Sequence record: MG383452
Length of the DNA stretch: 64,000 nucleotides
Source: Escherichia phage FEC14
Reading direction: 5' to 3' (one strand)
In this document: piece after piece, positions 6,213 through 60,283 of the stretch
How positions within the stretch are numbered: the stretch's first letter is position 1
Layout: each line of letters begins with the position of its first letter
Program-made: the position numbers and the translations under genes
Notes under the pieces: model-generated
What the model was told of the DNA's origin: nothing
The model's input: the letters and a program-made list of their open reading frames with translations, nothing else
Databases searched by the model: none

Positions 6213-6883
6213 TAAATACTCCCAAAATCACGATTGAGAAACGCAAAAACAGCCTGCTCTACAGTCAGGCCATCGGACTTCATCATACCTGCGGGAACGG
6301 TAGGGAACAAGCCTTTATGCCGTTGACGATGATCATGAACTCTCTCCCACTTCTCGACCACCAGACTTTCATTGAAGTCTGCGCCACCGTTACGCGATTT
6401 GACACGGGCAATACAGGTTTCAAGAGGGGTATCCATAAAGAGGACGACCAATTCACGTGGTGGGCGTGTCAGGCGGGGAATCCAAGAACTCAATAATGTA
6501 GACGGAATGATGCCTTCGAAAATCACATCATATTTCAGGTATTCTGGTTGGTCAGCAATAGACAACGCGAACAACATCTGCTCAGTATCCTTCAGAGAAT
6601 CAACCCCTTTGGACTTAGACTTGTCATATTTACCGACACAGACAATATTGTAAGATGGACAAACCGTGAGCATGATCTTACTGTTATGGGTTACGACATA
6701 CGCCTGAGGATCATTCTCCGCCAAATAAGAGGGCACAGTAGACTTACCACTACCATTGGAGCCTTTAATGTAATACAACTCTCCTCGTGCCGAATATTCC
6801 CCTTCTACAGTAGGTGGTTTGACAAACAAATGCACAGGGCGCTTCAACAGCCCTTTGAGCGAATAAGACATGACATGCTCCAA
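6209..6883 (-). CDS. PNK-type P-loop kinase; candidate 5-hydroxymethyl-deoxyuridine DNA kinase or nucleotide kinase
   Basis: 224 aa; Walker A GSNGSGKST (polynucleotide-kinase style, unlike the RSGKD dNMP kinase), Walker B-like VIFEGII; immediately upstream of hydroxymethylase. Confidence 0.45.
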   Translation of the reverse strand: MEHVMSYSLKGLLKRPVHLFVKPPTVEGEYSARGELYYIKGSNGSGKSTVPSYLAENDPQAYVVTHNSKIMLTVCPSYNIVCVGKYDKSKSKGVDSLKDTEQMLFALSIADQPEYLKYDVIFEGIIPSTLLSSWIPRLTRPPRELVVLFMDTPLETCIARVKSRNGGADFNESLVVEKWERVHDHRQRHKGLFPTVPAGMMKSDGLTVEQAVFAFLNRDFGSIY

Positions 6884-8076: not shown

Positions 8077-8364
8077 TTAACTTTGTATATCAATATTGAA
8101 AACTGTTTCAGGTGGCCACATGGCAGACAACTCGATTTGTGTGAATTTGGGTTGAACATACTGGTCCAAAACTTCGTCCCAGAGAGCATGTTCTATGTTG
8201 GCAATCAACAATTCGTCGTCCACTATTTCGACGGAATGAACCACTATCCGGTGGTCATAAGTCAAAGCATCGCTCACATGATCATTTTCTGCTCTCAGGT
8301 GCTGCATTATGAAATATTCGATTACAGATTCCAGTACCGTGTTCAGGCGAACATATTTCTTCAT
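8077..8364 (-). CDS. hypothetical protein (95 aa)
   Basis: ORF track. Confidence 0.4.
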   Translation of the reverse strand: MKKYVRLNTVLESVIEYFIMQHLRAENDHVSDALTYDHRIVVHSVEIVDDELLIANIEHALWDEVLDQYVQPKFTQIELSAMWPPETVFNIDIQS

Positions 8365-8381
8365 ACAGCCCCCTGCTTGTG

Positions 8382-9128
8382 CTACAGATAGAAATTAGGG
8401 ATTTCGCCGGATTCACAACCAAACCCGTTAAAATTCTGCTCAACGTGTAAGCGAATTTTATTCACCACTACCTGACGATGCTCTTCTTCCATACAACGTT
8501 CAATCAAAGAATACGCTGTATATGACAGACTGTTGAACAATCTGGAAATAACAAGGCAATTCTCTTCATTGTAAACGACTTCAGTATGGATTGCGAAAGC
8601 GTGGTCTTCGTCGGTAAGAATTTTACAGCCTTTGACCACAAATGGTTTTTCAAAGAAATCACGAGCTGAATCAGTGCCAGATTCTGGCATTAAACGGAAA
8701 TCGCCTTCTTCGCCGAAAACCGCTTTCAGATTTTCTTTACTGAATTCCGCTTCCATCTGTATACGTTTGTCGGCAAGATATTTCGCCGCAAAGTAGAATT
8801 TACCCACTGCATCATTAGCAGCGCGGCGGTTCGTAGCGGCTTGGGTATAACCAGAAACGAAGTCTTCAATGAATTCCAATGCTTCTGGTTTGCCAAAACG
8901 AATTTCGTCGCCCAGATCCAAGCTGGCTTCGGAATCAAGTTCAATACCCATAACCTTAAGAAGATCCGTTTCATTCAGCCTGTGCTGATTAAACAATTGT
9001 TCCTTGGAATATCCCAACTGGCTACCGAGTTCATATCCGGTTTTACCACCCGAATCTTTATGGGTGCGATCATATCGAACGCAATTAGAACTGAATTCAA
9101 TACCAAAAATACGATGTAGCTGTGACAT
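8382..9128 (-). CDS. hypothetical protein (248 aa)
   Basis: ORF track; no recognisable motif. Confidence 0.5.
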   Translation of the reverse strand: MSQLHRIFGIEFSSNCVRYDRTHKDSGGKTGYELGSQLGYSKEQLFNQHRLNETDLLKVMGIELDSEASLDLGDEIRFGKPEALEFIEDFVSGYTQAATNRRAANDAVGKFYFAAKYLADKRIQMEAEFSKENLKAVFGEEGDFRLMPESGTDSARDFFEKPFVVKGCKILTDEDHAFAIHTEVVYNEENCLVISRLFNSLSYTAYSLIERCMEEEHRQVVVNKIRLHVEQNFNGFGCESGEIPNFYL

Positions 9129-9189
9129 ATCATAACCTCATGTTTATAGAAAGCCGTTCGCGAATTATCACGTAGAACGGCTTTTAGAA

Positions 9190-9894
9190 CTAACCATTTT
9201 TGTGTTTACGACGTGCGTCCTTCCAAACAGACATCTGACTCTGTTTCTGGAATCGAGCAGTACGCATAAACAAAACGACCTCCCAATATTGCGGTTCAAT
9301 TTCATAAAGTTGTGAACGAAATTGATCTGCGCGGTATAATTTGACACAATGATTGTACAAAGGGTGATTCGCAAACCGCTTTAGCGCATCCCAGGTAAGT
9401 CTCAAACGTGTTTTAGAACGATATGCCCGTTCATTTCTCAATTTAATGAGATCTTCAAATACCAACAATCTGAGTTTAGGCGGTAAATAATGGAGGTTTA
9501 GGCCATAAAGATAGGTCACACCACGTTCACCGAATTTCACCCCATCCCCCTTCACAAAATTGAAGAAGAACACCAGAGGATACATATCCCAATACGGGAG
9601 TTCATCTTTAGTCAGCGCATCATATTTGAAATAATACATGCGACCAACAATATAACGCACACCCTGAACAGGACGTTTATTTTCAGCGAATGCTTTCATC
9701 ATGTGATTCGGAGATAAGTTAGCATCTTTCGACACGCGCTCCATAAACCACACATGAGAACGACGGATATTACGCTTCGCTTCCGGCCCAAAATGTTGAC
9801 GATATTTGCGGATGTAACGCTTGACCAGTTCTGGGGCGTCCATCTCGGCGGGAAGCAACAACGGGTCTTCTTCACCCATAGCGTTCTTAGCCAT
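9190..9894 (-). CDS. hypothetical protein (234 aa)
   Basis: ORF track; AAGGAG RBS upstream of ATG; divergent from late gene at 9949. Confidence 0.5.
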   Translation of the reverse strand: MAKNAMGEEDPLLLPAEMDAPELVKRYIRKYRQHFGPEAKRNIRRSHVWFMERVSKDANLSPNHMMKAFAENKRPVQGVRYIVGRMYYFKYDALTKDELPYWDMYPLVFFFNFVKGDGVKFGERGVTYLYGLNLHYLPPKLRLLVFEDLIKLRNERAYRSKTRLRLTWDALKRFANHPLYNHCVKLYRADQFRSQLYEIEPQYWEVVLFMRTARFQKQSQMSVWKDARRKHKNG

Positions 9895-9906
9895 TTGTCA
9901 ACTCCT

Positions 9907-9914
9907 TATAAATA
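9907..9914 (+). promoter_or_regulatory. T4-type late promoter TATAAATA
   Basis: exact TATAAATA about 35 nt upstream of the plus-strand gene start. Confidence 0.5.
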
Positions 9915-9948
9915 TCAACAGATATATTATTTAAATGGAGTCCTCATC

Positions 9949-10893
9949 GTGGAAGACTATCGCAATTTTCTAACGCAACTGCTTCAACGGGGTATTTCCC
10001 GCAAGAACAGATTTCGTGTTACAATTCCGTTGCCGCCTGGGATATTTGATTCCAATGCAACACTAGCAAATGATGGGAACGCGTATCCTTCATCTTCATC
10101 ATTTGGGGATCTGTTCAAACAAAGCGCCCGTATTGTAAACGCATTCTTTGGAGGGACAAACCAAACATCTCGTTCCCTGCAAATGATGTGTATGGTCGCA
10201 TCTTTACCTGGTACAGGGATTGACACTACTCCCATGACCAACAACGGCAACCACATTAAAATGCCGAACAACAAGACGAACATTGATCTGGAGTTGTCGT
10301 TCCTCCTCGCCAACGATTATTATGAAAAGTCGGTCATGGACAAATGGAAGAATCTGATATTCGACCCATACACAACCAAGATGGGTTATTATGAAGATTT
10401 CGTGACCGATATTTGTATAGAACAAATGGATACAGAAGATCAGGTTGTTCATCGCGTTTATGTGACTGAGGCTCACCCCATCAACTTCAGTTCTATAGAT
10501 CTGGATAAAAGCGCCGCCGATCAATTTAATCAGTACAACATTTCCTTTTCTTATAACAAAGTATTATCGGAGACTGAATATGAAACGCGCAGCCTCGCCA
10601 GCGATTTTCTTCCTTTGGGTATTACTGATGCTCTTGCTTCCGGAGACTGGGAAACCGCTGCGTCAAAAGCCGGACAGCTGTATAAAAAGATCAAAGAAGG
10701 AAACTTCACAGGTGAAGCCCTGCTGGCTTATAAGCAACTCGATCAGCTTGTAAACAATCTGGCTGGTATCAGCCTGGCTGATTTCGAAAGGATCTCTATC
10801 GGCATCCAGAGGGATATCTTAGGCAATGATAACCTGACGGCGTCTGAGAAGAGTAGTCTGTTGGGATTGTTACAGGATGTTGTCAAAAACTAA
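9949..10893 (+). CDS. late-expressed protein, probable virion (baseplate/tail) component; start uncertain
   Basis: long plus-strand frame ending 10893; first in-frame ATG is far downstream, so GTG 9949 preceded by GGAG (9937-9940) is proposed; the 9754-9948 part of the tracked ORF overlaps the minus-strand gene and is rejected. Confidence 0.45.
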   Translation: MEDYRNFLTQLLQRGISRKNRFRVTIPLPPGIFDSNATLANDGNAYPSSSSFGDLFKQSARIVNAFFGGTNQTSRSLQMMCMVASLPGTGIDTTPMTNNGNHIKMPNNKTNIDLELSFLLANDYYEKSVMDKWKNLIFDPYTTKMGYYEDFVTDICIEQMDTEDQVVHRVYVTEAHPINFSSIDLDKSAADQFNQYNISFSYNKVLSETEYETRSLASDFLPLGITDALASGDWETAASKAGQLYKKIKEGNFTGEALLAYKQLDQLVNNLAGISLADFERISIGIQRDILGNDNLTASEKSSLLGLLQDVVKN

Positions 10894-48270: not shown

Positions 48271-48603
48271 TTACTTGCGCAGGGCAACCACGTATTCGGC
48301 AAGTTCACCCATGGTCGGGTCGTCGCCTTTACCGCCCAGCCAGCCATCAGAGATCTCGACATTGAACTCTTCTTCTAGTTCCATGACGATTTCGATGGCA
48401 TCAAGATCGTCGCCGCCGAGGTCTTTCTTGGTGCGGAGGCCAGCCAGTTTATCCAGGGCGTCATTCATAATCACTTCCGCGTCGACGATGCCTTTGATGC
48501 TGCTCTTGTCTTCGTCACTGACTTCCAGGTTCAGATTGTCAGTGGCGTACTGAGCCAGGTGACGCATTACTTCAACATAAGTTGGTTTGTTTGACATAAG
48601 CAT
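48271..48603 (-). CDS. acyl carrier protein-like protein lacking the phosphopantetheine serine
   Basis: 110 aa; DLGGDDLDAIEIVMELEEEF aligns with E. coli ACP [20 protein letters not shown], Ser replaced by Asp; C-terminal extension. Confidence 0.55.
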   Translation of the reverse strand: MLMSNKPTYVEVMRHLAQYATDNLNLEVSDEDKSSIKGIVDAEVIMNDALDKLAGLRTKKDLGGDDLDAIEIVMELEEEFNVEISDGWLGGKGDDPTMGELAEYVVALRK

Positions 48604-48632
48604 ATCTCAAAATGAAGGCGGGTTTCCCCGCC
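48604..48632 (-). terminator. stem-loop/terminator (GGCGGG-TTTC-CCCGCC) of cassette family
   Basis: hairpin followed by TTCATTTTGAGAT and ATG of ACP-like gene. Confidence 0.45.
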
Positions 48633-48640
48633 AGTTGAAT

Positions 48641-50857
48641 TTAGATTTTGACTTCTTTTTCAGCCAGTTCGGCAGTGACAGTGTATTTCACCCCATCAAC
48701 TTCCACATCCATAGTGGATTCTTCCAAATCCAGGTCGGTAAACCAACCATGGCCTGCAACAATCCCATAAACTACCTTGGACAGCGTTTTGTTCAGAGAT
48801 CGAACTTCGTTGATAGCTGCTTTTGCTGCATCACCAATCCAACTTTCGATCAGCTTTTTCTGAGTCTCTTCCGGTACGCTGGTGATCATCGGCGATTTAA
48901 CAAACGCATTGTATTCGGCCAGGGCATTAGCGATCAGCTGATCAGCGACATTCAGTTTTTTACCGTCCGTCTGTTTTTTGATAACAGACGCGATGCTCGG
49001 CAGTGAAGATGCGCCTTTGATTTTCACATTCAATTCACGACTCATATAGACATCGGTTGATTCTACAGAAGAAGTCTTCGGTGAAAATCCATAGTCGCGA
49101 ATGCCGTTTGCTGACAGGAAATCAGCCGCTTCTTTGCCATATTTTGAAGCCAGACCAGTAGCGTTGCCTTTGCCAACCAGTTCATCACGGTAGAATTTCA
49201 GAACTTTTTGCTTTGCCTTCAATGCTTCACGGCGCACATTGTCTGCAAAGAATTCAGCAGCACTGATATTCTTTGTCATGGCGCGGTTAACCATTGGGAC
49301 ACTTTCCAGATTTACAATGAAGACTTCCGGCCCACCAAACACATGAACACCCATGGCAGTCAAATCCTGTGCCACCTTAGCCCGAATAATCGGAGAATCT
49401 GCAGTGATAGGCATTGTTTTCAGGTTGATGATACCATCCTTGACAATGGTGTAATTGCGATAACGCCAGGTTCCCAGCTCTTCAGGAAGTTCATATTTCT
49501 TCTGTACAAACTCAGGCACAACAACCGTTCCGTGTTGAACTGTCTGCACACTGATGTTAGGACGTTCTGAATTGTAGACCAAATTGCTGATCGGGACAAT
49601 CCCTTTATCATCTGCTGGATTGAATTCGGGGGTCCAATCTTCGTGCTCGGCCAGTTTGAGCGCCAGGGCTTTACGCTCTTCTTTAGAAGTCGCATTCGCA
49701 ATCTCTTCGGCCAACTTGTCTTCGGTGTCATCAACTTTCTGTACAGTACCGCGCCCAATGCTCTTGTAAGAGAATAGCGGATGCTTAGTGACAATAGAGA
49801 CATCTGCTTCAGCCAGATACGTCAGAACATCAACAATGGTGGTGGCGTCTTCAGCCGGAACCATATTATAATCGATGCCATCAACTCCTCGCAGAGATTC
49901 GTCTACGATAGCCTGGGTCAGATCGACTTTGATGTTGGAATAGTCCTGCTTGGTGAAACAGTTGCTGTATTGTTTGATGAAGCGGACGTCACCCGTTTTC
50001 TTCAGCGCAGCCCAAACCAAATCTGCGTCCATGGTATACACGCCGTAAAATGCCAGCACGTATGCCGCTTGGATGTCTGCCAGATTATCCAGCTGGTCGA
50101 TCATGTTGGGGTTTACAACCCACAGCTGAGAAACGCTTTCAGGGATGCTGACGTGGCCAATAGGGTGCTCTTCATCAGGATGCACAGCTAAAACAGTCGC
50201 CACGCCATTTTCAACATAAATGGCATGGGTGTAAACCAGGGGAACATCGACCACCACTTTCGGTGAAGAAGTTTTTAGCACGTTTTCCAATTCGGTCTGA
50301 TATTCATTCTGGCCTTCGGCGAATACGTGGGTCGCACCAGAACGTTCTGCCATTAGCGCCAGCAGTTCGCGATTACAATACCAACCGTATTCGATGAAGG
50401 TAATGTTATCAAACGCTTTGGGCAGTACTTCAGCGGCATCCAGGATTTCATTAGAACGCCAGCAGTTGTCATATCCGTCAGTCATGAATGCCAGGTTATT
50501 AACATAACCAGGTTTATTCAGGCTAATGGCAGTTTCCGCAGCCAATTTCAGCGGCTCAACAAAACCAGTACAACCAGAAGGCTTCAGGAAACGGTCAATT
50601 AGATTATTGATCTCAGTGAGATCAGTTGCACTGTTAATCTGACGTCCGGCAAATACCGTTCCGAAATCACCGCGAGATGAAAAGTAAAGGATGCTCACAG
50701 TATCTTCCGGTTTCACCAGGGAAGGCAGGTTCTCCTTCAGATGCTTACGGACTTCTGGAAGTGAACGATACATGGAACCGGAGATATCCACAACGATTAC
50801 ATGGTTAGACGGCGCGACGGTCGCAACCGCATTCTTAAATGTTAATGATTCAATCAT
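48641..50857 (-). CDS. von Willebrand factor A (VWA) domain protein (738 aa)
   Basis: N-terminal MIDAS-like VIVVDISGSMYRS; ATG 50857 with GAAGG RBS (tracked ORF starts at upstream GTG). Confidence 0.55.
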   Translation of the reverse strand: MIESLTFKNAVATVAPSNHVIVVDISGSMYRSLPEVRKHLKENLPSLVKPEDTVSILYFSSRGDFGTVFAGRQINSATDLTEINNLIDRFLKPSGCTGFVEPLKLAAETAISLNKPGYVNNLAFMTDGYDNCWRSNEILDAAEVLPKAFDNITFIEYGWYCNRELLALMAERSGATHVFAEGQNEYQTELENVLKTSSPKVVVDVPLVYTHAIYVENGVATVLAVHPDEEHPIGHVSIPESVSQLWVVNPNMIDQLDNLADIQAAYVLAFYGVYTMDADLVWAALKKTGDVRFIKQYSNCFTKQDYSNIKVDLTQAIVDESLRGVDGIDYNMVPAEDATTIVDVLTYLAEADVSIVTKHPLFSYKSIGRGTVQKVDDTEDKLAEEIANATSKEERKALALKLAEHEDWTPEFNPADDKGIVPISNLVYNSERPNISVQTVQHGTVVVPEFVQKKYELPEELGTWRYRNYTIVKDGIINLKTMPITADSPIIRAKVAQDLTAMGVHVFGGPEVFIVNLESVPMVNRAMTKNISAAEFFADNVRREALKAKQKVLKFYRDELVGKGNATGLASKYGKEAADFLSANGIRDYGFSPKTSSVESTDVYMSRELNVKIKGASSLPSIASVIKKQTDGKKLNVADQLIANALAEYNAFVKSPMITSVPEETQKKLIESWIGDAAKAAINEVRSLNKTLSKVVYGIVAGHGWFTDLDLEESTMDVEVDGVKYTVTAELAEKEVKI

Positions 50858-51020
50858 CGTTATTACCTTCTTTAGTGGTATGGACGGCTTCACCTTCCGG
50901 CTTCGCCAGCATGTGTTCTATGAATTCGCGATTAGTTTCAATCTGTTGGATTAAAACTTCGCTGGGTTTAAACTGTGAGTCAAGAGAGTCAACTCCTGAA
51001 CGCAAAAATGGTTTGGTCAT
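50850..51020 (-). CDS. small ORF (56 aa), translationally coupled
   Basis: unlisted frame MTKPFLRSGVDSLDSQFKPSEVLIQQ...; start 1 nt after upstream stop, stop overlaps VWA start (ATGA). Confidence 0.3.
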   Translation of the reverse strand: MTKPFLRSGVDSLDSQFKPSEVLIQQIETNREFIEHMLAKPEGEAVHTTKEGNNDD

Positions 51021-51021
51021 A

Positions 51022-51381
51022 TCAATTCCCTTTCACTTCCATGACACCAGAAATATTCTTCAGGGCTTCACGGACTTCCGACGCCTTATCTTTCTTTACA
51101 ATCACAACAATGAAAGAAAAGTTCTTTTTCTTACGCCAATTCTTGAAATGAGTGACCAACTGGATATCTTTCTCTTCAGCACCACTTTCTCCAGCTACAG
51201 GGATATAAACTGTGCCTGACTCAATTACGACATCAGCATCGTCTGGAATATTTTCATCGAGTTCTTCACGGTATTCTCCATTAACTTTGACGCAATGATC
51301 ATCGTGCCAAGCACCCTTTTCCCAATATTCGTCATCGTTATAGTAGGCGTTGAATTCAACACCTTTCATTTTTACGGACAT
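51022..51381 (-). CDS. hypothetical protein (119 aa)
   Basis: ORF track. Confidence 0.45.
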   Translation of the reverse strand: MSVKMKGVEFNAYYNDDEYWEKGAWHDDHCVKVNGEYREELDENIPDDADVVIESGTVYIPVAGESGAEEKDIQLVTHFKNWRKKKNFSFIVVIVKKDKASEVREALKNISGVMEVKGN

Positions 51382-51481
51382 GATTTCCTCGCTTTACAAT
51401 TGGACCATTATACCTTGGCTTGTTAATTGAAACGCCCAGCAATTTGCCGGACGTTATTGATTTTGAAAGACTTTTGAAGAA

Positions 51482-52207
51482 TTACAAGTAGGACACCACG
51501 ATGGCTCTATACAGCGCCCCCACGGAATCATCAGGTTCGGCTTTCGGATCTAACAAGAATTTCTTAACACGATCACAAGCTGCTTGGCGTTTGTCTTCTG
51601 ATAGGTCACACCACGGATAATCCCCTGAAGCAGCATTACACGTTTTCGCCAAACGCAAGACAAGTTCAGAATTTAGTTCTTCAGAAGTCATGAACGAGCG
51701 AAGATACGCTTCCACCAAAGATCTTGCTTCACCATTACGTCGTTCGTTATAACGTTCATTATCGGTGCGAACAAATTCAACTCGAAATCCCCGACTTGGA
51801 TCCTTGGGATGACGAAACACGACGGATTGTCCTTTACCCTTAAGGAATTCAGAACCACCCATCTCATGTATCGCTTCCCTTTCTGACACATATTCATCAA
51901 TGTTGATCTTAGCATCTTTGACGGACACATCGATGATCTGCTTTTCTACCATCGCGCGATATGCTTCTAGTTCCCACAGCTGGGAGAAGGTCTTTTCATA
52001 GGCCAGTTTCTTACCCAACTCTTCATCAAAGTTGGCTGGGTCGATAGAAGTTGAACTATTCTTACCCCACACAACGAACCCATTGTCCATCTTGAAATGG
52101 CATGTAATGACGCGGTGACCACCAACTTCACGGTCTTCATAAATCACTTCAGCAATATGTGACTTCAGAAGTTCTGGTGTGAGTTTAATCCCTTCACGAT
52201 TACCCAT
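51482..52207 (-). CDS. hypothetical protein (241 aa)
   Basis: ORF track. Confidence 0.45.
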   Translation of the reverse strand: MGNREGIKLTPELLKSHIAEVIYEDREVGGHRVITCHFKMDNGFVVWGKNSSTSIDPANFDEELGKKLAYEKTFSQLWELEAYRAMVEKQIIDVSVKDAKINIDEYVSEREAIHEMGGSEFLKGKGQSVVFRHPKDPSRGFRVEFVRTDNERYNERRNGEARSLVEAYLRSFMTSEELNSELVLRLAKTCNAASGDYPWCDLSEDKRQAACDRVKKFLLDPKAEPDDSVGALYRAIVVSYL

Positions 52208-52451
52208 TATTCACCCCCACTTTCACCAAACGATCCAGTAATTGGTAAATCTTGCGGGGACAACGCCTTAAATCTTCATCCGACAGATATAGCACTTCGG
52301 TCTGAATATCTTTAAAAGTTGAAAGGTTATTCAACTCAGATTCGACGACGGTTTTCAATTGCGTATACGCTTCATCGCAATAATTTCGGCGGTTGCAATC
52401 GGTCATTACCTGAGATAACTTTTCAAAAGATTCTTGTATTTCCTTTGACAT
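52200..52451 (-). CDS. hypothetical protein (83 aa)
   Basis: ORF track. Confidence 0.4.
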   Translation of the reverse strand: MSKEIQESFEKLSQVMTDCNRRNYCDEAYTQLKTVVESELNNLSTFKDIQTEVLYLSDEDLRRCPRKIYQLLDRLVKVGVNNG

Positions 52452-52833
52452 CGTTTGACACCTCTAGTTGGTCACACACAGATATTACTTTACGGCACGT
52501 GTCGATATCGAATAAACCGATATGGCAGTCGCGTTTCTTGATCCCCAGATTATGAGCCAGCCAGCTGTAAGCATCACTCCTGCTCCTCTGCCCACTTTTC
52601 CAGATAGGGTCAAACGACCTATGAGCTTCCTGCTTAGCAGCACGGAGAGCGGCATTCGCCATCCTTCCCAGAGGTTGTCTACCATCCCCATGGGTATGGC
52701 AACCCACACGAGCGTCGCATGGCGAGCATACCCAAAACTTCAGTTTGTGTAGATCTGGGCGATGAGGGTAGAGTACATCACCCCCGACGTATTTGGCAGG
52801 AAGGCCGCAGTAATCACAGATGACAGGTTTCAT
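52423..52833 (-). CDS. zinc-finger (CxxC...CxxC) protein
   Basis: start MKPVICDYCG; second pair CSPCD; upstream GTG start would lie inside terminator hairpin. Confidence 0.4.
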   Translation of the reverse strand: MKPVICDYCGLPAKYVGGDVLYPHRPDLHKLKFWVCSPCDARVGCHTHGDGRQPLGRMANAALRAAKQEAHRSFDPIWKSGQRSRSDAYSWLAHNLGIKKRDCHIGLFDIDTCRKVISVCDQLEVSNDVKGNTRIF

Positions 52834-52841
52834 ATTCTTTG

Positions 52842-52870
52842 TCCAAAAGAAACCCCGCACACGGCGGGGT
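52842..52870 (-). terminator. rho-independent terminator
   Basis: CCCCGC-ACACG-GCGGGG hairpin followed by TTTCTTTTGG on minus strand. Confidence 0.45.
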
Positions 52871-52892: not shown

Positions 52893-53264
52893 TTATTTCA
52901 ACAGAGCTTCCAGTTCTTCAAGAGATTTACCTTCAAGCTCCTGCTGTTTCTTACGCTGGATCAGTTCCAGAATAACCTGGTTGTTCGCTTTACGTTCGGC
53001 GGCGGTTGCGCTTTCGTCACGTTCTTTCAGTTTAACACCGATGATCGCTTTCACGATATCGAAACGCAGTTGTAACTGAGAGTCGACTGCGCTTTTCACG
53101 CCGATGAAATCTTCTTCATCGCTGGCGGCTTCCTTCACCTGACGGCTGAGGTCTTTCGCCAGTTCGTTTAGGGCATTCAGGTTCAGATCCCAAACCTGCT
53201 CAACAGATAGCAGACCTTTGTTAGAGTTGAAACGCAGTTTTAAACGGGTTGCTTGATCAAACAT
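52893..53264 (-). CDS. hypothetical protein (123 aa)
   Basis: ORF track. Confidence 0.4.
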   Translation of the reverse strand: MFDQATRLKLRFNSNKGLLSVEQVWDLNLNALNELAKDLSRQVKEAASDEEDFIGVKSAVDSQLQLRFDIVKAIIGVKLKERDESATAAERKANNQVILELIQRKKQQELEGKSLEELEALLK

Positions 53265-53301: not shown

Positions 53302-55320
53302 TTAGAAGATGACTTTTACAGTACGGTTAAACGCGCCGGACACTTTGACGAACACGTGGTTGCGTTGCGTCGTTGAGAATCCCAGACCGGACAGTTGGTT
53401 TTCATTCGGCTGGACTTTCATTTTACTACCCAACATTTCAAAAACCTTACGATGTTTATCCAGTTCCGGCTTCAGATATTCGTTGTAGAAACCACGAGTA
53501 CCTTCAGGATTAGCACAGCCTTCAAGAATGAAGAACACATGCTTGTTACCAGTTTGCTCCCCATCCCAATGGTTTGGTGAATTCAGAACCAGCTGTACTT
53601 TCTGGAAGGTCGCAGTCTTGATACCCCAAACTTCTTTAGACTTATCAACATTAGCCAGTTCGGACTTAATGCTAACGACTTGTTTGTCTTTAACAGTCAG
53701 GATGACTGCAGTGATACGCCCCTGATCTTTCAGGCCAGGATGGCTGAAACGATGCGTTGCGCCTTTGTATTCTACTTCGACTTCAAACCCTTCGTCGATC
53801 TTTTCACGTTGATTGTAGTTGTGGATTTCGAAACGGTATTCACCATCGCGCAGCTTGCTTTCATCTGTAAAGATGATATTTTCCACCGGAGCGCGGTTTG
53901 GATCAATACCATCCATACCGTTCATATCGATATCCAGATGGGCACCTGTCATAGAGCGACGATCACGGAAGTACACGTGCTCCATATTGTTAAAGAACAT
54001 ATGAAGATCGAGGTCGTCGTTATTGTGCCACGCCAAGGAAACGCGCAGATACCCGTCAACTTTACCACCAGCAGCCTTTACACGTTCTTTAATGGAATCG
54101 GTCACTTCACCGTTGTAAGACCAGGAGAACCCGTTGTTCCACTTGAACAGGTTAGGCGCATCTGGGTTCGCCGGAGCAACCAGGGACATCAGGTTGCTAG
54201 TATGAGAATTCTCTACAAGCACTTCCATTGAATGCGCTTTTGGCAGAACATTGCTCAGGAAATCATCAACGCTGATCTCTTCAACTTTTTCCAGGGACTT
54301 GGTCGGAGTTTTCACTTCGGCGGCCAGCTGTGCAAACGGATCCATCGCTTTCTGAGCAGCCAGATCTGCGAACAGAACGTTGTTGATTGTCAGATCATCG
54401 TAAACCGCATAACGACGCGCCAGTGAGTCTTCCAAACCCAGAGCAATAACTTCTTTCTGAGCGTTTTCGATCATGGATTTTGAAACCAGCGCTGTCGGAC
54501 GTTTGTAGTTCGCCGGAGCAACTTTGGATTCAAACGATTTAACAGCCTTTTCCAGTTCCACGCCTTCGCTGATATCTGTCAGCAGAGTGCCGATAACTGT
54601 GTTACGGATGCCGTGTGGAACATGATTGTTTGAACGGTATCCAGTATGCCATGCCCACAGAGAACGGGCTGATTCGGGGATTTGTTCATACGCTTTTTTG
54701 GTTTCAACAAATCCCTTCACTGCTGCTTTGTGTTCTGCGCCGCGATACAGAGAATTCTGGTCAATCAGTTCCAGAACGATTTCAGCTGATTCCAGAGTAA
54801 TTTCACGCAGACCGCGTTCAAACAATTCAATAGCCTGGCGGATTTCACCTTTTTTCGAAGCGATTGCGTCCGGACGCAGAACATAGCTACCCAGCAGGTC
54901 GGTGTGGAAGTGGTTGTAGGTGCGGACATTGCCGTCTTTCATTTCGTGATTCGACTCAACACCGACTTTCTTGGTATCGTTGAAGTACACGTCGACGATT
55001 ACGTGTTGCTTGACATACGCAGACAGCGCCGCAGCCACCACGTCATATTCATTACCCAGATCAATGTTGTCCCAGATAGAAATTACGTTCAGGTCGGAGT
55101 CGATGGTGATCACACCGCCGATGTTACGGATGAATTGTTTACAGCAGGTGCAGTCGTGCTCAGTACGCTCACGGTAGAGCGGGTTGGTACCAGCAGGGAA
55201 AGATGCCAGATACAGATCCCAAAGAGCATCTTTATCGATATTGGTCATGAACAGACCAGTTGCGGACATCGCCAGCACGTTGTTATTAACTGCCGTTGCG
55301 AAGGGTTTGAATTCTGCCAT
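53302..55320 (-). CDS. large hypothetical protein (672 aa)
   Basis: ORF track; no motif recognised by eye; lies in the operon downstream of regA. Confidence 0.55.
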   Translation of the reverse strand: MAEFKPFATAVNNNVLAMSATGLFMTNIDKDALWDLYLASFPAGTNPLYRERTEHDCTCCKQFIRNIGGVITIDSDLNVISIWDNIDLGNEYDVVAAALSAYVKQHVIVDVYFNDTKKVGVESNHEMKDGNVRTYNHFHTDLLGSYVLRPDAIASKKGEIRQAIELFERGLREITLESAEIVLELIDQNSLYRGAEHKAAVKGFVETKKAYEQIPESARSLWAWHTGYRSNNHVPHGIRNTVIGTLLTDISEGVELEKAVKSFESKVAPANYKRPTALVSKSMIENAQKEVIALGLEDSLARRYAVYDDLTINNVLFADLAAQKAMDPFAQLAAEVKTPTKSLEKVEEISVDDFLSNVLPKAHSMEVLVENSHTSNLMSLVAPANPDAPNLFKWNNGFSWSYNGEVTDSIKERVKAAGGKVDGYLRVSLAWHNNDDLDLHMFFNNMEHVYFRDRRSMTGAHLDIDMNGMDGIDPNRAPVENIIFTDESKLRDGEYRFEIHNYNQREKIDEGFEVEVEYKGATHRFSHPGLKDQGRITAVILTVKDKQVVSIKSELANVDKSKEVWGIKTATFQKVQLVLNSPNHWDGEQTGNKHVFFILEGCANPEGTRGFYNEYLKPELDKHRKVFEMLGSKMKVQPNENQLSGLGFSTTQRNHVFVKVSGAFNRTVKVIF

Positions 55321-55433
55321 GGTATAGTCTTCCTGTTTCAGTTCAAAGTGAGCGCCCTTATCGGGGCGCGTCGTTAAAGTGAGGTCAATATATACGTTGA
55401 AAAAGTTATTGAAGAACGAAGTAACGCGATTCT

Positions 55434-56690
55434 TTATTCAGGTTTCTTCAAACGATCTAATAAATTGACCGATCCGCGATTGAGGACAATTTCATCGCAT
55501 CGATTTTTGTATCTCCCGCCTCCATCATAACCGACCTTGCCGCGTGGCTTTTCCCCTCTCTCGATAGCCTCAACACAGCGGGTGTACTTGCTCAATTCAC
55601 AGAACATGTTCTCCAGCTGCATGACGTTCATGCACTGATCTTCCGGCGCTTCGGCTGACCAGAACTGCTCTTGGACATAACCATACTGAGCAAACAATTG
55701 ATACTGATGATCACGAACCCAGAATATGCATTCTTCATGAGTCATGCCGTCCTTATCCAGGAACATCAGGTCAATACCCGCACGGCAACCTGGACCAGCA
55801 ATAGTGAAATGATTCTCACTGAATGGATATTCATCGATGTATGTAAAATCAACCCAAATCTGGTATGCCAAGAATGGTCCAAGCCCCTCAATGTCGTCAT
55901 ACATCGCCTGGTAAACAGAGTCGGGACGGCTAAATTCCCTGAGGCGATCAAAGTAATGAGGGTGTTTGTTGACGAATGCCTTCAAAGAGCGAATGACTCG
56001 CATCGGCATGTATGGTTCCCAGCCTTCTATTTTGTATTCACCAGGATTATCTTCGGCCAGCTTCTTGGCAACCTTGTAATCCATTTCATCTATAACACCA
56101 CCCACCCGATGGACTTTTACCTTCATGCCGCCAAAGCGTTGCTCCTTATGGTTGACAACCAGTTCAGGGAAAGCTAGGCATTGTTTCAGACCGCCTGTAT
56201 TAAACGCATTGGTGAAAACTTTGCCACCTTTAGATTCGAATTCCTGAAGAACATCTCGACACCATTCAAGATTTATGTTTCCGAATTCTTCGATCGTCCA
56301 TGGACCACCCAAAGCCTGTATAGGTTCCCACATGTTGTACATGCGGAACAATACACAGTTAAACATTTTGTCAGATAGCGTGAGATCCTGATCGAGGATG
56401 ATATTATTGATCAAATTTCGAGACTGCCTATCGTGCTCTCTCCGGACGTTACAGAACTTGACCTGCCGTAGTATGGGATTATCCGTCCAAGGAGCAGGAA
56501 GACGCTGGACGTCCTTTCTCACGTGGATCTTATAACGCTCGCTCATCCATTCGTATGCGAGTTGTTTATGGAATGGGCTTAACATGGGATGTGCAGATTT
56601 AATTTTAACTTCCCGAACACCGCAATAAGGAATGTCACACGGTTTATCTTTCATGGTATCCTCTCTAGAATACAAAAAAACAGAGGCCAT
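55434..56690 (-). CDS. hypothetical protein (406-418 aa); candidate DNA-modification enzyme by context
   Basis: ORF track; alternative ATG at 56654 with GAGG RBS; first ATG sits in terminator loop. Confidence 0.5.
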   Translation of the reverse strand: MASVFLYSREDTMKDKPCDIPYCGVREVKIKSAHPMLSPFHKQLAYEWMSERYKIHVRKDVQRLPAPWTDNPILRQVKFCNVRREHDRQSRNLINNIILDQDLTLSDKMFNCVLFRMYNMWEPIQALGGPWTIEEFGNINLEWCRDVLQEFESKGGKVFTNAFNTGGLKQCLAFPELVVNHKEQRFGGMKVKVHRVGGVIDEMDYKVAKKLAEDNPGEYKIEGWEPYMPMRVIRSLKAFVNKHPHYFDRLREFSRPDSVYQAMYDDIEGLGPFLAYQIWVDFTYIDEYPFSENHFTIAGPGCRAGIDLMFLDKDGMTHEECIFWVRDHQYQLFAQYGYVQEQFWSAEAPEDQCMNVMQLENMFCELSKYTRCVEAIERGEKPRGKVGYDGGGRYKNRCDEIVLNRGSVNLLDRLKKPE

Positions 56691-56703
56691 TATAGCCTCT
56701 GTT
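56673..56703 (-). terminator. rho-independent terminator
   Basis: CAGAGGC-CATTATA-GCCTCTG hairpin followed by TTTTTTTG on minus strand. Confidence 0.5.
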
Positions 56704-56725
56704 GTTTAGTGAATAACGGATTATA

Positions 56726-57595
56726 TTAATCGAAGCGAGAGAGGTGTGTCACAGTGTTTTGAACAGGTGCGCACGCGTATACACGAACATTAGCACCCCA
56801 CACCCCACACAGCTTAGGCATATTGGTATCGTTAATGATATACGCTGGCACATAACTTTCAATTTGGCCGTTAACATCTACGGGTCGAGAAGATTTTTCA
56901 ACTGCCATAGAAAGAATTATTTCCAACGTTTTTGGAGATACCAACGCCACGCCGTTCAAATCATCAACAAATACCTGACCTTCTTCAATTGCCATGCTGG
57001 CAACGATGTCATTGATCTGACGGGAAGGGGTATTCGTCAGCATATCAGAGAAATCAGGCTCTTTGAACACAGCCATGTTTTTCAGGAATTTTCCTTTCGG
57101 ATATTCTTTGCCATTCCACATCACAGTCTCATTCACTTTGATGCATGCCTGAGGGAATTCACCTTCAACACGTAACTGGCCATCTGGGAAACCGCGTGAA
57201 TAATAATATTCCAGTGCCGGACCGACTTCATCTTCTGAGCGAATAAATTTGCTCATGTTGGAGGCATAAACACGCTGCAAGCACTCATCGCCGTTGAAAC
57301 CAGCAATGTGTGCCACGCCGTCATTGACTGTTGTGATGTCGCCCTGAGCGTCCAAAATCTGGCGCATAATGTCTTTGATGTCGACAACAGCAGGTTCTTT
57401 CAGGACTCGCGGAGATGCAGTGAACTCAATTTTCACCTCGTGGTCGAAATAAGCCGCTTCCAGTAATTCGCGGGTCTCTTCCAGAACCAGTTTGGCCTGA
57501 TTGCGAATTTTACCGAAGTCAGGGGCTGTAATATCTCCAGCCGCATTACCAAAAGCCAAATTCAATCTCACGTTTTTATTAAATGTAGTTGTCAT
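56726..57595 (-). CDS. hypothetical protein (289 aa)
   Basis: ATG 57595 (MTTTFNKN...) with GGAG upstream; longer tracked ORF would overlap regA by 71 nt. Confidence 0.45.
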   Translation of the reverse strand: MTTTFNKNVRLNLAFGNAAGDITAPDFGKIRNQAKLVLEETRELLEAAYFDHEVKIEFTASPRVLKEPAVVDIKDIMRQILDAQGDITTVNDGVAHIAGFNGDECLQRVYASNMSKFIRSEDEVGPALEYYYSRGFPDGQLRVEGEFPQACIKVNETVMWNGKEYPKGKFLKNMAVFKEPDFSDMLTNTPSRQINDIVASMAIEEGQVFVDDLNGVALVSPKTLEIILSMAVEKSSRPVDVNGQIESYVPAYIINDTNMPKLCGVWGANVRVYACAPVQNTVTHLSRFD

Positions 57596-57611
57596 AATAT
57601 AGCGACTCCAG

Positions 57612-58007
57612 TTATTCGCTTTTTGCCCGACTTGGGCGAATAGTGTATTTTGGAACCAATTTCCACTCAGAAACTTGGTCATGTTTTACAACTTTGATCC
57701 GAGACATGTCAGCCACTTCGGTTATTTGTTCCGGATGCAAGATCTTAACCATATTCCATTGCTCCAGAAGCCGTATAATCCGATTCATACGCAGGACATC
57801 TTCACGCGTAAAGCCGTTGTAGTGCCCATCTAGCATGAACAAATGCTTGAAATGCACGATGTGATATCTGCCAAATTTATGCAGGATATGGCACGTTTGA
57901 TACAAGGTGTTAGGCTCTTGACGAGTGTTAACCCCTATCCGACTCAGCGTTTCCTTGATACCCAGGAAAATCCCTGGTTTGTCTTGGTTCAATTGAACTT
58001 CAACCAT
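57612..58007 (-). CDS. regA: RegA translational repressor
   Basis: LYQTCHILHKFGRYHIVHFKHLFMLDG and EWKLVPKYTI match T4 RegA; start at MVEVQLNQ aligns with T4 MIEITLKK (tracked ORF has 23 extra codons). Confidence 0.7.
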   Translation of the reverse strand: MVEVQLNQDKPGIFLGIKETLSRIGVNTRQEPNTLYQTCHILHKFGRYHIVHFKHLFMLDGHYNGFTREDVLRMNRIIRLLEQWNMVKILHPEQITEVADMSRIKVVKHDQVSEWKLVPKYTIRPSRAKSE

Positions 58008-58105
58008 ACAGTCAACAATGCTGGCCTCATCGTTGACAGCTGAAAGTTTTAAGATGTCCAGCGTATTACGCGCCATGACTCATACCCCTTTAACAATTAT
58101 TTGAA

Positions 58106-58528
58106 TTACTTAGCCTTGCGCGGTTTGGCTTTTTCGTTGCTGTTGGAACGTTCGACCTTCGCCTTGATTTCAGCCAGGACTTCTTTCGGCAGGAATCGAA
58201 CATATTCTGAAGCCTTTTCAGGACTGATGTAATAATACTCAGAAATCAATTTCACATCAGGATCCATAGCTCCCTTCTTAGACCACTTGTCATAGCGACG
58301 TTTTGCCGGAATGCTATGAAACGCCAGGTTCCATTGCATCCAAGGAGTAATGGCATGGAAGCGGTTCATTTGTTCGGCAACCACAAGCGTGTCTTTACTC
58401 TGAGCAAGGCCGCGCCGAGTCATGAAAGGATCAAATGCCTTTCTGATTTCGGGGTCTTCGGTCATCAACAGATTCTCTTTGGTGCTATTCAACGCACCGA
58501 GGTAATCGAACAGTGACGGAGCGGCCAT
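58106..58528 (-). CDS. 62: clamp-loader small subunit, gp62-like
   Basis: 140 aa; position between 44 and regA; PAKRRYDKWSKK resembles T4 gp62 PRGKRYGKWAK. Confidence 0.6.
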   Translation of the reverse strand: MAAPSLFDYLGALNSTKENLLMTEDPEIRKAFDPFMTRRGLAQSKDTLVVAEQMNRFHAITPWMQWNLAFHSIPAKRRYDKWSKKGAMDPDVKLISEYYYISPEKASEYVRFLPKEVLAEIKAKVERSNSNEKAKPRKAK

Positions 58529-58532
58529 AATA

Positions 58533-59522
58533 TTACTTCCATTTGATGTTGAGCATGACGTTAGTCAAGAAGTAAACGCCGTGTAACCAGACGTCGCCGA
58601 CGGAACGATGTTCAATCTGAGACTGACCACAGACGCATACCAGATCAGGGATTGACTCGTTTTGAATCAAAGGAGTCTTTTCCTTGTTCTGGGGAACGCA
58701 GAAATGGAAGAAACGGGAATAAAAATCTTCAGTGATGTAGTTTTGGTTGTCGGTCACCCACTGCTTCATCCCAGCCCAATCATTGGTTTTCAGGAAATCA
58801 ACCAACGCTTGGAATTCCCCTGCTTTAACCTGTGCCAGAGCGCGTTCATCGATTTTACCAAACGTGGTGGCATTATCCTGAAGAGTTCCCATAATTTTGC
58901 GATTATCTGGGAAATATGATTTCACAATGGAAGCAATTACACCAGCTTCATACGGAATGCCTTCCTCTGTCAGGATAGTTGCGCAACGACGCATGAATTG
59001 GAGTTTAACTTCATCTGCTTCCTTTTCAGACCAGATAAAATCAATTTCACGACAGCGGGAACGCAGAGGTTCATTAACGCGCTGTTTCGCATTAGTCGTC
59101 AGGATGAAGGAGCAGTTTTTGGAGACTTTCTCTACGATGCCTTTCAGGGATTCCTGTGCCGCCATGGAAAGTCGCTCAACTTCATCAAGGATAACGACTT
59201 TGCGGCCACCGAAAACACTGACGCCAGTTGCGTATTGAATAACGCGGTCACGAATGACATCAATGCTGTTATCCAGTGACGCATTGATCATCAACGGTTT
59301 GATACAACCGATTTCGTTACACACAGCCAGAGCAGAAGTAGTCTTGCCCGTACCAGGCTGAGGGGAATAGAACAGCATTGAGGGGATGTTTCCATTGCCT
59401 GATGTAACATAGCCATGGATTTTTGCACGGACGTCTGAAGGGAGGACGATCTCATCCAGATTGTCAGGGCGATATTTGTTTTCCCACGCATATTGATCTG
59501 TGACGATAGTGATGTTAGACAT
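58533..59522 (-). CDS. 44: clamp-loader AAA+ ATPase, gp44-like
   Basis: 329 aa; WENKYRPDNLDEIV, P-loop PQPGTGKTT, DEVERL, SRCREI match T4 gp44/RFC. Confidence 0.85.
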   Translation of the reverse strand: MSNITIVTDQYAWENKYRPDNLDEIVLPSDVRAKIHGYVTSGNGNIPSMLFYSPQPGTGKTTSALAVCNEIGCIKPLMINASLDNSIDVIRDRVIQYATGVSVFGGRKVVILDEVERLSMAAQESLKGIVEKVSKNCSFILTTNAKQRVNEPLRSRCREIDFIWSEKEADEVKLQFMRRCATILTEEGIPYEAGVIASIVKSYFPDNRKIMGTLQDNATTFGKIDERALAQVKAGEFQALVDFLKTNDWAGMKQWVTDNQNYITEDFYSRFFHFCVPQNKEKTPLIQNESIPDLVCVCGQSQIEHRSVGDVWLHGVYFLTNVMLNIKWK

Positions 59523-59599: not shown

Positions 59600-60268
59600 T
59601 TAATCCAGCTGCATGCCGACGTAATAGTTGATGGTGCCGTCTGCGGATTGGAAGTTAACCAGTTGCATTTCGGCACAGGCGCGGATCACATAGTTGCCTT
59701 CGATCATTTTCAGGTTGACCACATCAACAGGCATAGCAAAATCACCCAGAGTTGTTTCACCCAACTCAACAGTGTAATCGTTGGAATTGTCGATAGTAGT
59801 AGTCGTGCCCACCAGACGAGTTTTACCGCCGCTGGCAACCAGACGTACAGTTTTGTGGCCCAGAGTAGAACAGGCGCGGGTCAGCTCTTTCATTTTTTCA
59901 GGAGTGACTGTTGCTTCAAATTCTACAGACGGGAGATCGATGCTGTCTGCCGGAACGACAGTCAGTTCTTTAGCGGAACGCCAGAATTGCAGTTGGGAGT
60001 TTTCACCTTTCAGCAAAATGTGGTCTTCCGACATTTCAATTTTACCGCCTTTAAAACTCGGCAGACGCTGGATTGCCAGCAATTTGGTCAGATCCAGAAT
60101 CGGGAATTCGAACGGGAAGTCTTCGTCAATGTCGGCAATAGCGATAACTGTACTGGAATCGTTAACAGTGCGCAACTTTTTACCAGGTGCCAGAACGATA
60201 GAGGGGCAGATGGTTTCAAAGTTAGCCAGCAGTTGTAAAGTGCGTTCGGAGAGAGTGATCTCTTGCAT
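59600..60268 (-). CDS. 45: sliding clamp, gp45-like
   Basis: 222 aa from MQEITLSERTLQLLANF (T4 MKLSKDTTALLKNF) with GAGGA RBS; tracked ORF begins at upstream TTG. Confidence 0.85.
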   Translation of the reverse strand: MQEITLSERTLQLLANFETICPSIVLAPGKKLRTVNDSSTVIAIADIDEDFPFEFPILDLTKLLAIQRLPSFKGGKIEMSEDHILLKGENSQLQFWRSAKELTVVPADSIDLPSVEFEATVTPEKMKELTRACSTLGHKTVRLVASGGKTRLVGTTTTIDNSNDYTVELGETTLGDFAMPVDVVNLKMIEGNYVIRACAEMQLVNFQSADGTINYYVGMQLD

Positions 60269-60283
60269 TAGTTGTATCCTCAA

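Follow-up and report, generated by a model that had tools for sequence, protein, structure and literature searches.

Downstream of the sliding clamp, gp44, gp62 and regA genes of Escherichia phage FEC14, where T4 has its DNA polymerase gene 43, lie three large genes encoding proteins of 289, 407 and 672 amino acids (genes 1, 2 and 3 below). Our analysis of a 64,000-nucleotide stretch of this phage DNA (sequence record MG383452; hereafter the window) suggests that these genes are not a substitute for a lost polymerase. Quite probably, this part of a ViI/CBA120-like Kuttervirus genome is a mosaic made of three independent units, namely a predicted nucleoside triphosphate (NTP) pyrophosphohydrolase, an ortholog of the ViI protein gp160, and a DUF8224 protein followed by a small partner. 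An earlier note, made from the sequence alone, had called all three proteins unassigned. This does not hold for two of them, since relatives of gene 1 are already labeled 'MazG-like pyrophosphatase' in RefSeq and UniRef names gene 2 '5-hmdU DNA kinase helical domain-containing protein' (5-hmdU, 5-hydroxymethyl-2'-deoxyuridine).

Judged by sequence similarity, the window derives from a Kuttervirus (Ackermannviridae), a ViI/CBA120-like phage of Salmonella and E. coli. At the nucleotide level, the 4.4-kb region spanning the three genes (53302–57682) shares about 96% identity with SenALZ1 and SFP10, two phages of Salmonella. Coverage of at least 80% of this region was found in 169 phage records. 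In essence, the arrangement is that published for ViI/CBA120, and the locus has been catalogued in over 150 genomes. The finding is therefore not a new one, and its interest as a whole is modest. Literature searches on DUF8224, the ViI locus tags and CBA120 orf155–157 gave no match.

Layout of the locus

All genes of the locus lie on the minus strand. The gp45 sliding clamp (59600–60283; Pfam gp45-slide_C), gp44 (58533–59522; Pfam AAA/Gp44_lid), gp62 (58106–58528; Pfam Phage_clamp_A) and the regA translational repressor (57612–58076; Pfam Translat_reg) form the intact series described in the earlier note. Pfam matches and open reading frames (ORFs) also confirmed the positions and sizes given there for the next three genes, including a middle protein of about 410 residues. 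Gene 1 occupies 56726–57595. Its mechanically called ORF (56726–57682, 318 amino acids) extends back into regA, and the true start is the ATG at 57595, which has GGAG ahead of it and lies 16 nt past the regA stop codon. The mechanical ORF of gene 2 (55434–56690, 418 amino acids) begins within the terminator hairpin of gene 1. Because the first 12 codons fall in this hairpin, the start is placed at M13 (position 56654, with GAGAGGA ahead), and the resulting gene (55434–56654) fits the 407-residue annotations of SFP10 and ViI. Gene 3 (53302–55320) is co-transcribed with the gene for its partner, a helical protein of 123 amino acids (52893–53264; phrog_2018).

According to the pattern of hairpins, the locus would comprise three transcription units: 45-44-62-regA-gene 1, gene 2 by itself, and gene 3 with the 123-residue partner. 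No hairpin was found between regA and gene 1, and gene 1 is followed by a strong intrinsic terminator (56703–56679, minus strand; 11-bp stem, run of seven T residues, −15.8 kcal/mol, z −4.8); therefore, gene 1 is co-transcribed with regA and appears to be the last cistron of that operon. Between genes 2 and 3 there is a GC-rich hairpin (55369–55352, minus strand; GCGCCC-CGAUAA-GGGCGC, −13.6 kcal/mol, z −3.2), which has no T-run and was not listed by the terminator scan. No structure was found between gene 3 and the partner gene, and the next terminator comes only after the latter (52871–52851, minus strand; 8-bp stem with six GC pairs, T-run, −16.1 kcal/mol). Thus, the suggestion that each of the three genes is set off by its own terminator hairpin stands for gene 1, stands in part for gene 2, whose hairpin is present but not canonical, and fails for the regA–gene 1 junction and for the end of gene 3. 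A further terminator-like hairpin was noticed on the plus strand within the 3' end of regA (57622–57640); no plus-strand gene ends there, and it is probably a chance match.

Position of the DNA polymerase gene

The polymerase slot after regA is defined by synteny comparison with T4 alone and has no functional meaning. The upstream order 45-44-62-regA is common to both loci, but in contrast to the T4 gene 43 locus the window is devoid of a polymerase. None of the three proteins matches a polymerase family in Pfam, PHROG or NCBIfam, and a tblastn search with the ViI DNA polymerase Vi01_190 returned no match within the 64-kb window, in agreement with the earlier remark that no polymerase motifs are visible in these proteins. 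More generally, none of the three matched any NCBIfam family, and sequence and family-profile searches of all three against the PDB produced chance-level matches only. In ViI, the polymerase gene is located at 145128–148124, about 57 kb from the regA region and directly upstream of the genes for gp243 and gp247; no homologs of gp243, gp247 or gp226 were found in the window. We also considered a split or cryptic DNA polymerase, comparable to 43A/43B of some T4-like phages, and ruled it out on the absence of a polymerase domain and the empty tblastn result. Genomes of Ackermannviridae are more scattered in their organization than those of T4-type phages (PMC11721090). Nothing is missing after regA, because this phage family places its DNA polymerase elsewhere.

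Gene 1, a predicted pyrophosphohydrolase

The N-terminal part of gene 1, about 190 residues, appears to be an all-alpha NTP pyrophosphohydrolase of the MazG/HisE superfamily, with the corresponding activity predicted. This assignment is based on PHROG matches (phrog_2144, 'MazG-like pyrophosphatase', 1.7e-135; phrog_671, 'nucleotide pyrophosphohydrolase', 2.9e-19) and on profiles of remote relatives. A search with the gene 1 family profile against 1.84 billion representative proteins collected 340 remote relatives, which cover profile positions of about 1–190 only. Among the 56 of them scanned with Pfam, 27 matched PRA-PH, 11 MazG-like and 10 MazG. Acidic residues E39, E40, E43, D82 and D86 of gene 1, arranged in ExxE...DxxxD motifs, are invariant in the family alignment, and two Glu and two Asp remain invariant throughout the remote relatives. 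Gene 1 thus resembles known all-alpha NTP pyrophosphohydrolases (MazG, HisE/PRA-PH and the dimeric dUTPase/dCTPase enzymes such as T4 gp56) both in these motifs and in the families to which its relatives belong. It differs from them in having no direct Pfam match and in carrying a C-terminal extension of about 100 residues. This extension seems to be a lineage-specific addition confined to Ackermannviridae, the only group in which full-length homologs were found (204 clusters).

What might such an enzyme do in this phage? One remote relative, a metagenomic protein of 400 residues (P0454), combines thymidylate kinase (residues 5–195) with a PRA-PH/MazG-like domain (from residue 265), and this fusion ties the clade of gene 1 to thymidine-nucleotide metabolism. 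In an Acinetobacter phage that hypermodifies 5-hmdU, a dTTPase/dUTPase that spares 5-hmdUTP has been demonstrated (PMC13458397). By analogy, gene 1 is probably a pyrimidine deoxynucleoside triphosphatase (dNTPase) that shapes the nucleotide pool for incorporation of 5-hmdUTP. It would hydrolyze a competing pyrimidine deoxynucleoside triphosphate (dTTP and/or dUTP) to the monophosphate, and this hydrolysis would favor the incorporation of 5-hmdUTP made via the thymidylate-synthase-like dUMP hydroxymethylase encoded in the same window (5163–6212).

Several observations weigh against this interpretation. Gene 1 has no direct match in Pfam or NCBIfam, and although its AlphaFold2 (AF2) model shows four helices (27–49, 73–85, 102–114 and 121–133), its predicted local confidence (pLDDT) of 48 is too low for a fold search. 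The substrate specificity proposed here is pure inference from analogy. Moreover, a second all-alpha NTP pyrophosphohydrolase, of the dUTPase_2 type (4049–4600), adjoins the hydroxymethylase gene and, judged by its family, would be a closer candidate for the dTTPase/dUTPase than gene 1. The same caution applies to the comparison with the dTTPase/dUTPase gp18 of Acinetobacter phage 15599 (PMC13458397): that protein, like gene 1, comes from a phage that incorporates 5-hmdU, but it has been described as dUTPase/dCTPase-like and is closer to the 4049–4600 protein.

Gene 2, the ortholog of ViI gp160

Gene 2 can be placed with much more precision. It matches the Pfam family HMUDK_hel (PF18723) with an E-value of 2.7e-84 and 283.3 bits against a cut-off of 25, over profile positions 5–280 of 281, and PF18723 is present on 120 of 120 gene 2 homologs among the matches listed. 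The best ViI match, Vi01_130c (YP_004327501), is 86.5% identical and carries the note orf00160. We checked against Table 1 of PMC8989533 that gp numbers of ViI equal orf numbers: YP_004327553 is orf00226 and gp226, YP_004327565 is orf00243 and gp243, and YP_004327568 is orf00247 and gp247. Since this numbering holds, gene 2 is the ortholog of ViI gp160. The two proteins agree in near-full domain coverage, their genes both come next to the MazG-like gene that follows regA, with the order regA-MazG-gp160-DUF8224 common to both genomes, and both genome types also carry a 5-hmdU DNA kinase and a hydroxymethylase. They differ in nothing of substance, apart from the mechanical ORF in the window being 11–12 codons longer than the true gene. 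Over 80% of its length, the gene 2 protein is moreover 100% identical to a protein of phage FEC14.

In the literature, gp160 is listed as 'aG/PT-PPlase 1' and belongs to a set of five proteins: lysates of these, mixed together, produced 5-NeOmdU (5-(2-aminoethoxy)methyl-2'-deoxyuridine) from 5-hmdU DNA (PMC5889632). Gene 2, as judged by orthology, is therefore a member of the published gene set for thymidine hypermodification to 5-NeOmdU. The window encodes the matching upstream enzymes, the 5-hmdU DNA kinase (HMUDK_HMUD1, 6209–6883, E 3.7e-113) and the hydroxymethylase (Thymidylat_synt). Co-occurrence points in the same direction. The gene 2 family comprises 966 clusters and the kinase is found in 402 phage records, and the two track each other across phage groups: the respective counts in the phage collection are 45 and 45 for Klebsiella, 10 and 10 for Serratia, 6 and 6 for Shigella, 6 and 6 for Bacillus, and 164 and 161 for Salmonella. 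The earlier idea that the three genes serve a DNA-modification pathway is consequently supported for gene 2 and, through its predicted NTP pyrophosphohydrolase activity, for gene 1.

The role of gp160 within the pathway is a more difficult question. In our reading, gene 2 would encode a catalytic enzyme of the helix-hairpin-helix (HhH) type, acting on 5-hmdU activated by the kinase. An HhH-like architecture was reported for gp160 from Phyre2 analysis (PMC5889632), and gene 2 has an HhH-like G-h-G...A motif at residues of about 256–266 (I-x-G-L-G/S-x-F-L-A-Y-Q-I), recognizable as a sequence motif only. Residues GPGC290, E308, E348-N349-x-x-C352-E353 and K356 are invariant in the 29 members of the family compared, the most distant of which are 40% identical, and the E...C-E element is kept even in gp186 of Bacillus phage SP10. 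The latter protein is a fusion of the kinase with HMUDK_hel (Pfam match at residues 313–598). Gene 2 aligns to the C-terminal half of this fusion with 24% identity (E 2e-18), and the two share the motifs PWTD-P, F-NV-R--DR, GPGC and LE---CE-SKY. Unlike in SP10, the kinase of the window is encoded by a separate gene about 49 kb from gene 2, and about 80 residues inserted in the Kuttervirus protein (~160–250) are absent from SP10 gp186.

A possible clue to the chemistry comes from clade-2 aGPT-Pplases/ADDT (PF18724), which include ViI gp247, M6 gp51, PaMx11 gp46 (PUGT) and YuA Pplase2. They act in the same pathway as gp160, and a similar HhH-like architecture has been reported for them (PMC5889632). 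Their active-site residues are known: E243/T244/C247 in PaMx11 gp46 (PMC11472151) and E222/T223 in Pplase2 (PMC13458397). The E-x-x-x-C element of gene 2 resembles this arrangement of metal-binding Glu/Thr and nucleophilic Cys (PMC11472151; PMC13458397), E348-N349-x-x-C352 being set against E243/T244/C247 by comparison of sequences. We therefore consider a mechanism in which gp160 would bind the flipped-out, kinase-activated 5-hmdU, and its invariant Glu...Cys-Glu motif might carry out Cys-at-C6 chemistry, as in Pplase2 transferases.

Reconstitution experiments stand in the way of a simple assignment. It was shown that gp67 and gp243 phosphorylate 5-hmdU in DNA, gp247 transfers serine, and gp226 decarboxylates the product to 5-NeOmdU (PMC8989533). 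In these experiments, gp247 was necessary and, after kinase action, sufficient for serine transfer, and for phage M6 the kinase gp54 together with gp51 sufficed in a mix without gp55 (PMC8989533). Because gp247 in ViI and gp54 with gp51 in M6 were enough, the gp160 family has no demonstrated activity. Gene 2 is also distinct from the clade-2 enzymes in that it matches PF18723 only, whereas gp247 matches PF18724, and in that the reconstitutions achieved amino-acid transfer without gp160 (PMC8989533). When we aligned the gp160 family with gp247 using hhalign, the resulting probability was 0.2, that is, no similarity, and the reported paralogy is thus unsupported by our data. PDB structures of Pplase2 were unreachable by sequence from gene 2; gp247 itself fails to reach them by phmmer. 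The likeness of the gene 2 motif to the Pplase2 active site may be suggestive, but it rests on inspection only.

In view of these results, an alternative needs to be weighed, according to which gp160/HMUDK_hel is a non-catalytic subunit of the 5-hmdU DNA kinase, binding DNA or assisting base flipping. Such a role is implied by the name that Pfam gives the family, 'kinase helical domain'; in SP10 gp186, HMUDK_hel forms the C-terminal part of a fusion with the kinase, and the HhH-like motif of gene 2 would suit a DNA-binding function. In addition, the SP10 kinase domain is active alone and serine transfer proceeds without gp160 (PMC8989533). On the other hand, purified kinases phosphorylate 5-hmdU DNA without gp160 (PMC8989533), and the invariance of Cys290, Glu348, Cys352 and Glu353, with E...CE retained in SP10, would be unusual for a purely structural DNA-binding module. 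We therefore regard the accessory-subunit explanation as a serious alternative, albeit an unlikely one, and favor a catalytic role for gp160.

If gp160 is indeed an enzyme, its reaction may lie outside the route to 5-NeOmdU. One speculative and rather improbable version is that HMUDK_hel proteins (gene 2, gp160 and the C-terminal half of SP10 gp186) convert kinase-activated 5-hmdU in replicated DNA into thymidine. Such a reaction would start from a Cys–C6 adduct, after which the exocyclic methylene would be reduced, not aminated. Three points fit: the family is dispensable for hypermodification, it is fused to the kinase in SP10, and its Glu...Cys-Glu motif is invariant. Borohydride is known to convert the Pplase2 intermediate to T, and how 5-hmdU becomes thymidine was stated to be unexplained in 2018 (PMC5889632).

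DUF8224 and its partner

Gene 3 is a different matter. It matches phrog_1735 over its entire length (residues 1–672, E 0), and its full-length homologs, 48–96% identical, all carry the precomputed Pfam assignment PF26675, DUF8224. The family is remarkably large, with at least 7679 database clusters and 558 phage records, and its members are about 50% identical across phages of hosts as different as Bacillus and Caulobacter. They occur in phiCbK-type Caulobacter siphoviruses, in Naomviridae roseophages, in phages of Bacillus, Xanthomonas, Pseudomonas, Vibrio and Microcystis, and in many metagenomic phages.

The genomic neighborhoods of DUF8224 were analyzed in 80 viral loci, in which ORFs were called and clustered; 52 representative loci have DUF8224 proteins less than 70% identical to each other, and the neighbors were counted within 8-kb windows. 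In 52 of the 52, the window included, DUF8224 is followed on the same strand by a homolog of the partner, a protein of about 130 residues, at a median gap of 13.5 nt. Thus, based on gene order and family distribution, DUF8224 and its partner appear to be an autonomous, widespread phage module unrelated to base modification. The partner has no Pfam or PDB match (43 partners were scanned at permissive E-values). Among the other neighbors, the most frequent were an ATP-dependent ligase with a LigD-type phosphoesterase domain (9 of the 52 loci), a UvsW-type helicase (7), a DnaB-type primase-helicase (5) and a metallophosphoesterase (5).

These data bear directly on the proposal that all three proteins are tailoring enzymes of thymidine hypermodification, DUF8224 being a further transferase or other tailoring enzyme. 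DUF8224 does adjoin gp160 and the MazG-like gene in every one of the 19 Ackermannviridae loci examined, and it is present in roseophage DSS3_VP1, a phage described as deoxyuridine-substituting (PMC8323127). However, a MazG-like or gp160-like gene lies within 8 kb of DUF8224 in only three of the 52 representative loci, all three from Ackermannviridae, and in none of the other 49, so that the co-occurrence proposed in the earlier note is not seen for this protein. The family sizes disagree as well (558 records and at least 7679 clusters for DUF8224 versus 966 clusters for gp160 and 402 records for the kinase), and Caulobacter (28 records) and Xanthomonas (24) are among the top ten organism names for DUF8224 but are not listed for either the kinase or gp160. 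As for the folds expected of tailoring enzymes, glycosyltransferase, PLP-dependent (pyridoxal phosphate) and radical S-adenosylmethionine folds, all suggested earlier, were not detected in the three proteins, and neither was ATP-grasp. Since MazG and gp160 neighbors are limited to Ackermannviridae and the family spans unrelated phages without hypermodification genes, DUF8224 is not a hypermodification enzyme, and it is very improbable that all three proteins are.

Structure prediction with AF2 gave a confident multidomain model of gene 3 (pLDDT 83, predicted TM-score 0.46), and its C-terminal half includes a predicted beta-sandwich of the TerD fold. Nevertheless, gene 3 contains a TerD-like domain without being a TerD protein. 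Compared with Klebsiella TerD (2kxt) and SCO6318 (2qz7), the match spans only about one sixth of the 672 residues, the other domains have no counterpart, and there is no Ter operon context. Pfam TerD had no match in gene 3 at E≤10, nor in the 32 DUF8224 members scanned; in these members, a Pfam scan at permissive E-values revealed nothing consistent, with a faint hint of DUF2135 in two of the 32. Foldseek searches with the model yielded antibody/Ig noise only from the PDB and uncharacterized phage proteins only from BFVD. By analogy with the pairing of TerD and TerY/vWA, we considered a link between DUF8224 and the 750-residue VWA protein encoded nearby; it was ruled out, as VWA is found in only 4 of the 52 loci.

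With low confidence, we propose that DUF8224 and the 123-residue protein may form a complex taking part in DNA or RNA transactions of the early/middle replication-repair region, and, with equally low confidence, that the TerD/C2-like sandwich may be a Ca2+-dependent binding module. It is a possibility that the pair represents a new, near-universal module of large phages acting in nucleic-acid transactions or counter-defence. A number of points count against such a role. The enrichment of neighbors is weak, even the commonest being found in just 9 of the 52 loci, and a catalytic or binding function cannot be read from either the fold or the sequence of DUF8224. In the deposited ViI genome, the gene is split into ORFs of 491 and 183 residues (Vi01_129c and Vi01_128c, 8364–10383), and some Dickeya phages (e.g., RC-2014) have only fragments of it, although it is intact in phiDP23.1. 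These splits and fragments could reflect sequencing error, a frameshift or real decay, and they hint that DUF8224 may be dispensable.

A specific link to RNA repair was also considered and set aside, as RNA ligase or phosphoesterase genes are near DUF8224 in few loci, and when all 52 representative loci were counted, a phosphoesterase was a neighbor in just 5 and a ligase in 9. Individual loci of this type do exist. In the Naomviridae roseophage DSS3_VP1 (60835–75087), the DUF8224 pair is located between an RNA ligase 2/phosphoesterase pair and a nicotinamide phosphoribosyltransferase, and RNA-ligase-type genes are near DUF8224 also in one other of our loci (L006) and in a Klebsiella phage.

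Two further explanations can be judged from the same neighborhoods. A virion or other structural role of DUF8224, as opposed to one in nucleic-acid metabolism, is improbable: its neighbors in the window are genes of replication, recombination and nucleotide metabolism, not structural genes, elsewhere it adjoins ligase, primase-helicase and phosphoesterase genes, and an identity of about 50% from Bacillus to Caulobacter phages is atypical of host-facing structural proteins. Hardly more probable is the other option raised by the earlier note, that of three lineage-specific accessory factors of replication, here taken to work with the clamp and clamp loader. Co-transcription of gene 1 with 45-44-62-regA and the presence of DUF8224 in replication/repair neighborhoods of several unrelated phages would agree with it, but gene 1 is assigned to NTP pyrophosphohydrolases and the gene 2 family is tied to 5-hmdU kinases, which leaves DUF8224 alone as a candidate, without direct evidence. 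A mosaic of three independent units accommodates these assignments better.

Neighboring genes and variation at the locus

The hydroxymethylase and kinase genes belong to a cluster on the minus strand (3519–6883) which, according to its Pfam matches, represents the pre-replicative half of the hypermodification pathway. It comprises ACT_phage (3519–4049), the dUTPase_2-type NTP pyrophosphohydrolase, a small P-loop kinase-like protein (4597–5166), the hydroxymethylase and the 5-hmdU DNA kinase, in the same gene order as in the SFP10 annotation. In RefSeq/GenBank relatives, the kinase is mislabeled 'terminase small subunit' or 'baseplate hub', and SP10 gp186 is likewise mislabeled 'terminase small subunit'. 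Past the DUF8224 pair, the minus-strand region 48271–52860 includes the small genes phrog_1934, phrog_9847 and phrog_4254, an N4 gp49/Sf6 gp66-like protein (51482–52207), the 750-residue protein with an N-terminal VWA domain (48641–50893; phrog_2426) and an ORF of 110 residues (48271–48603) at the site of the acyl carrier protein annotated in relatives.

Some variation is evident within the locus itself. The gene 1 protein is 100% identical to CBA120 orf157, and the best full-length DNA matches of the region are only about 96% identical; this disparity between protein and regional DNA matches suggests local mosaicism among Kutterviruses. Phage PhaxI (83087–87838) has about 370 additional bp within the region homologous to 53302–57682, and in phage Maynard a homing endonuclease is annotated next to the gp160 ortholog. 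Both cases suggest a locus prone to mobile insertions.

Implications

A polymerase seems to be 'missing' only when T4 is taken as the reference; this artefact is a lesson for the annotation of related genomes. Two of the three genes once taken for unassigned belong to the published thymidine-hypermodification system of ViI/CBA120, which shields therapeutic-candidate phages against restriction enzymes. In our opinion, two subjects deserve follow-up, the chemistry of gp160/HMUDK_hel and the strictly paired DUF8224 module. The DUF8224 pair spans phages of Gram-negative, Gram-positive, cyanobacterial and alphaproteobacterial hosts, which places it among the more widespread uncharacterized gene pairs. 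The gp160 family, with an invariant Cys/Glu motif and retained with the kinase throughout the Ackermannviridae host groups and in phages of the SP10 type, is a candidate for the conversion of 5-hmdU to T or for a second transfer to a DNA base. Were the thymidine-forming reaction true, genomic T in these phages would be made after replication, and the MazG-like dNTPase would serve to exclude dTTP from replication.

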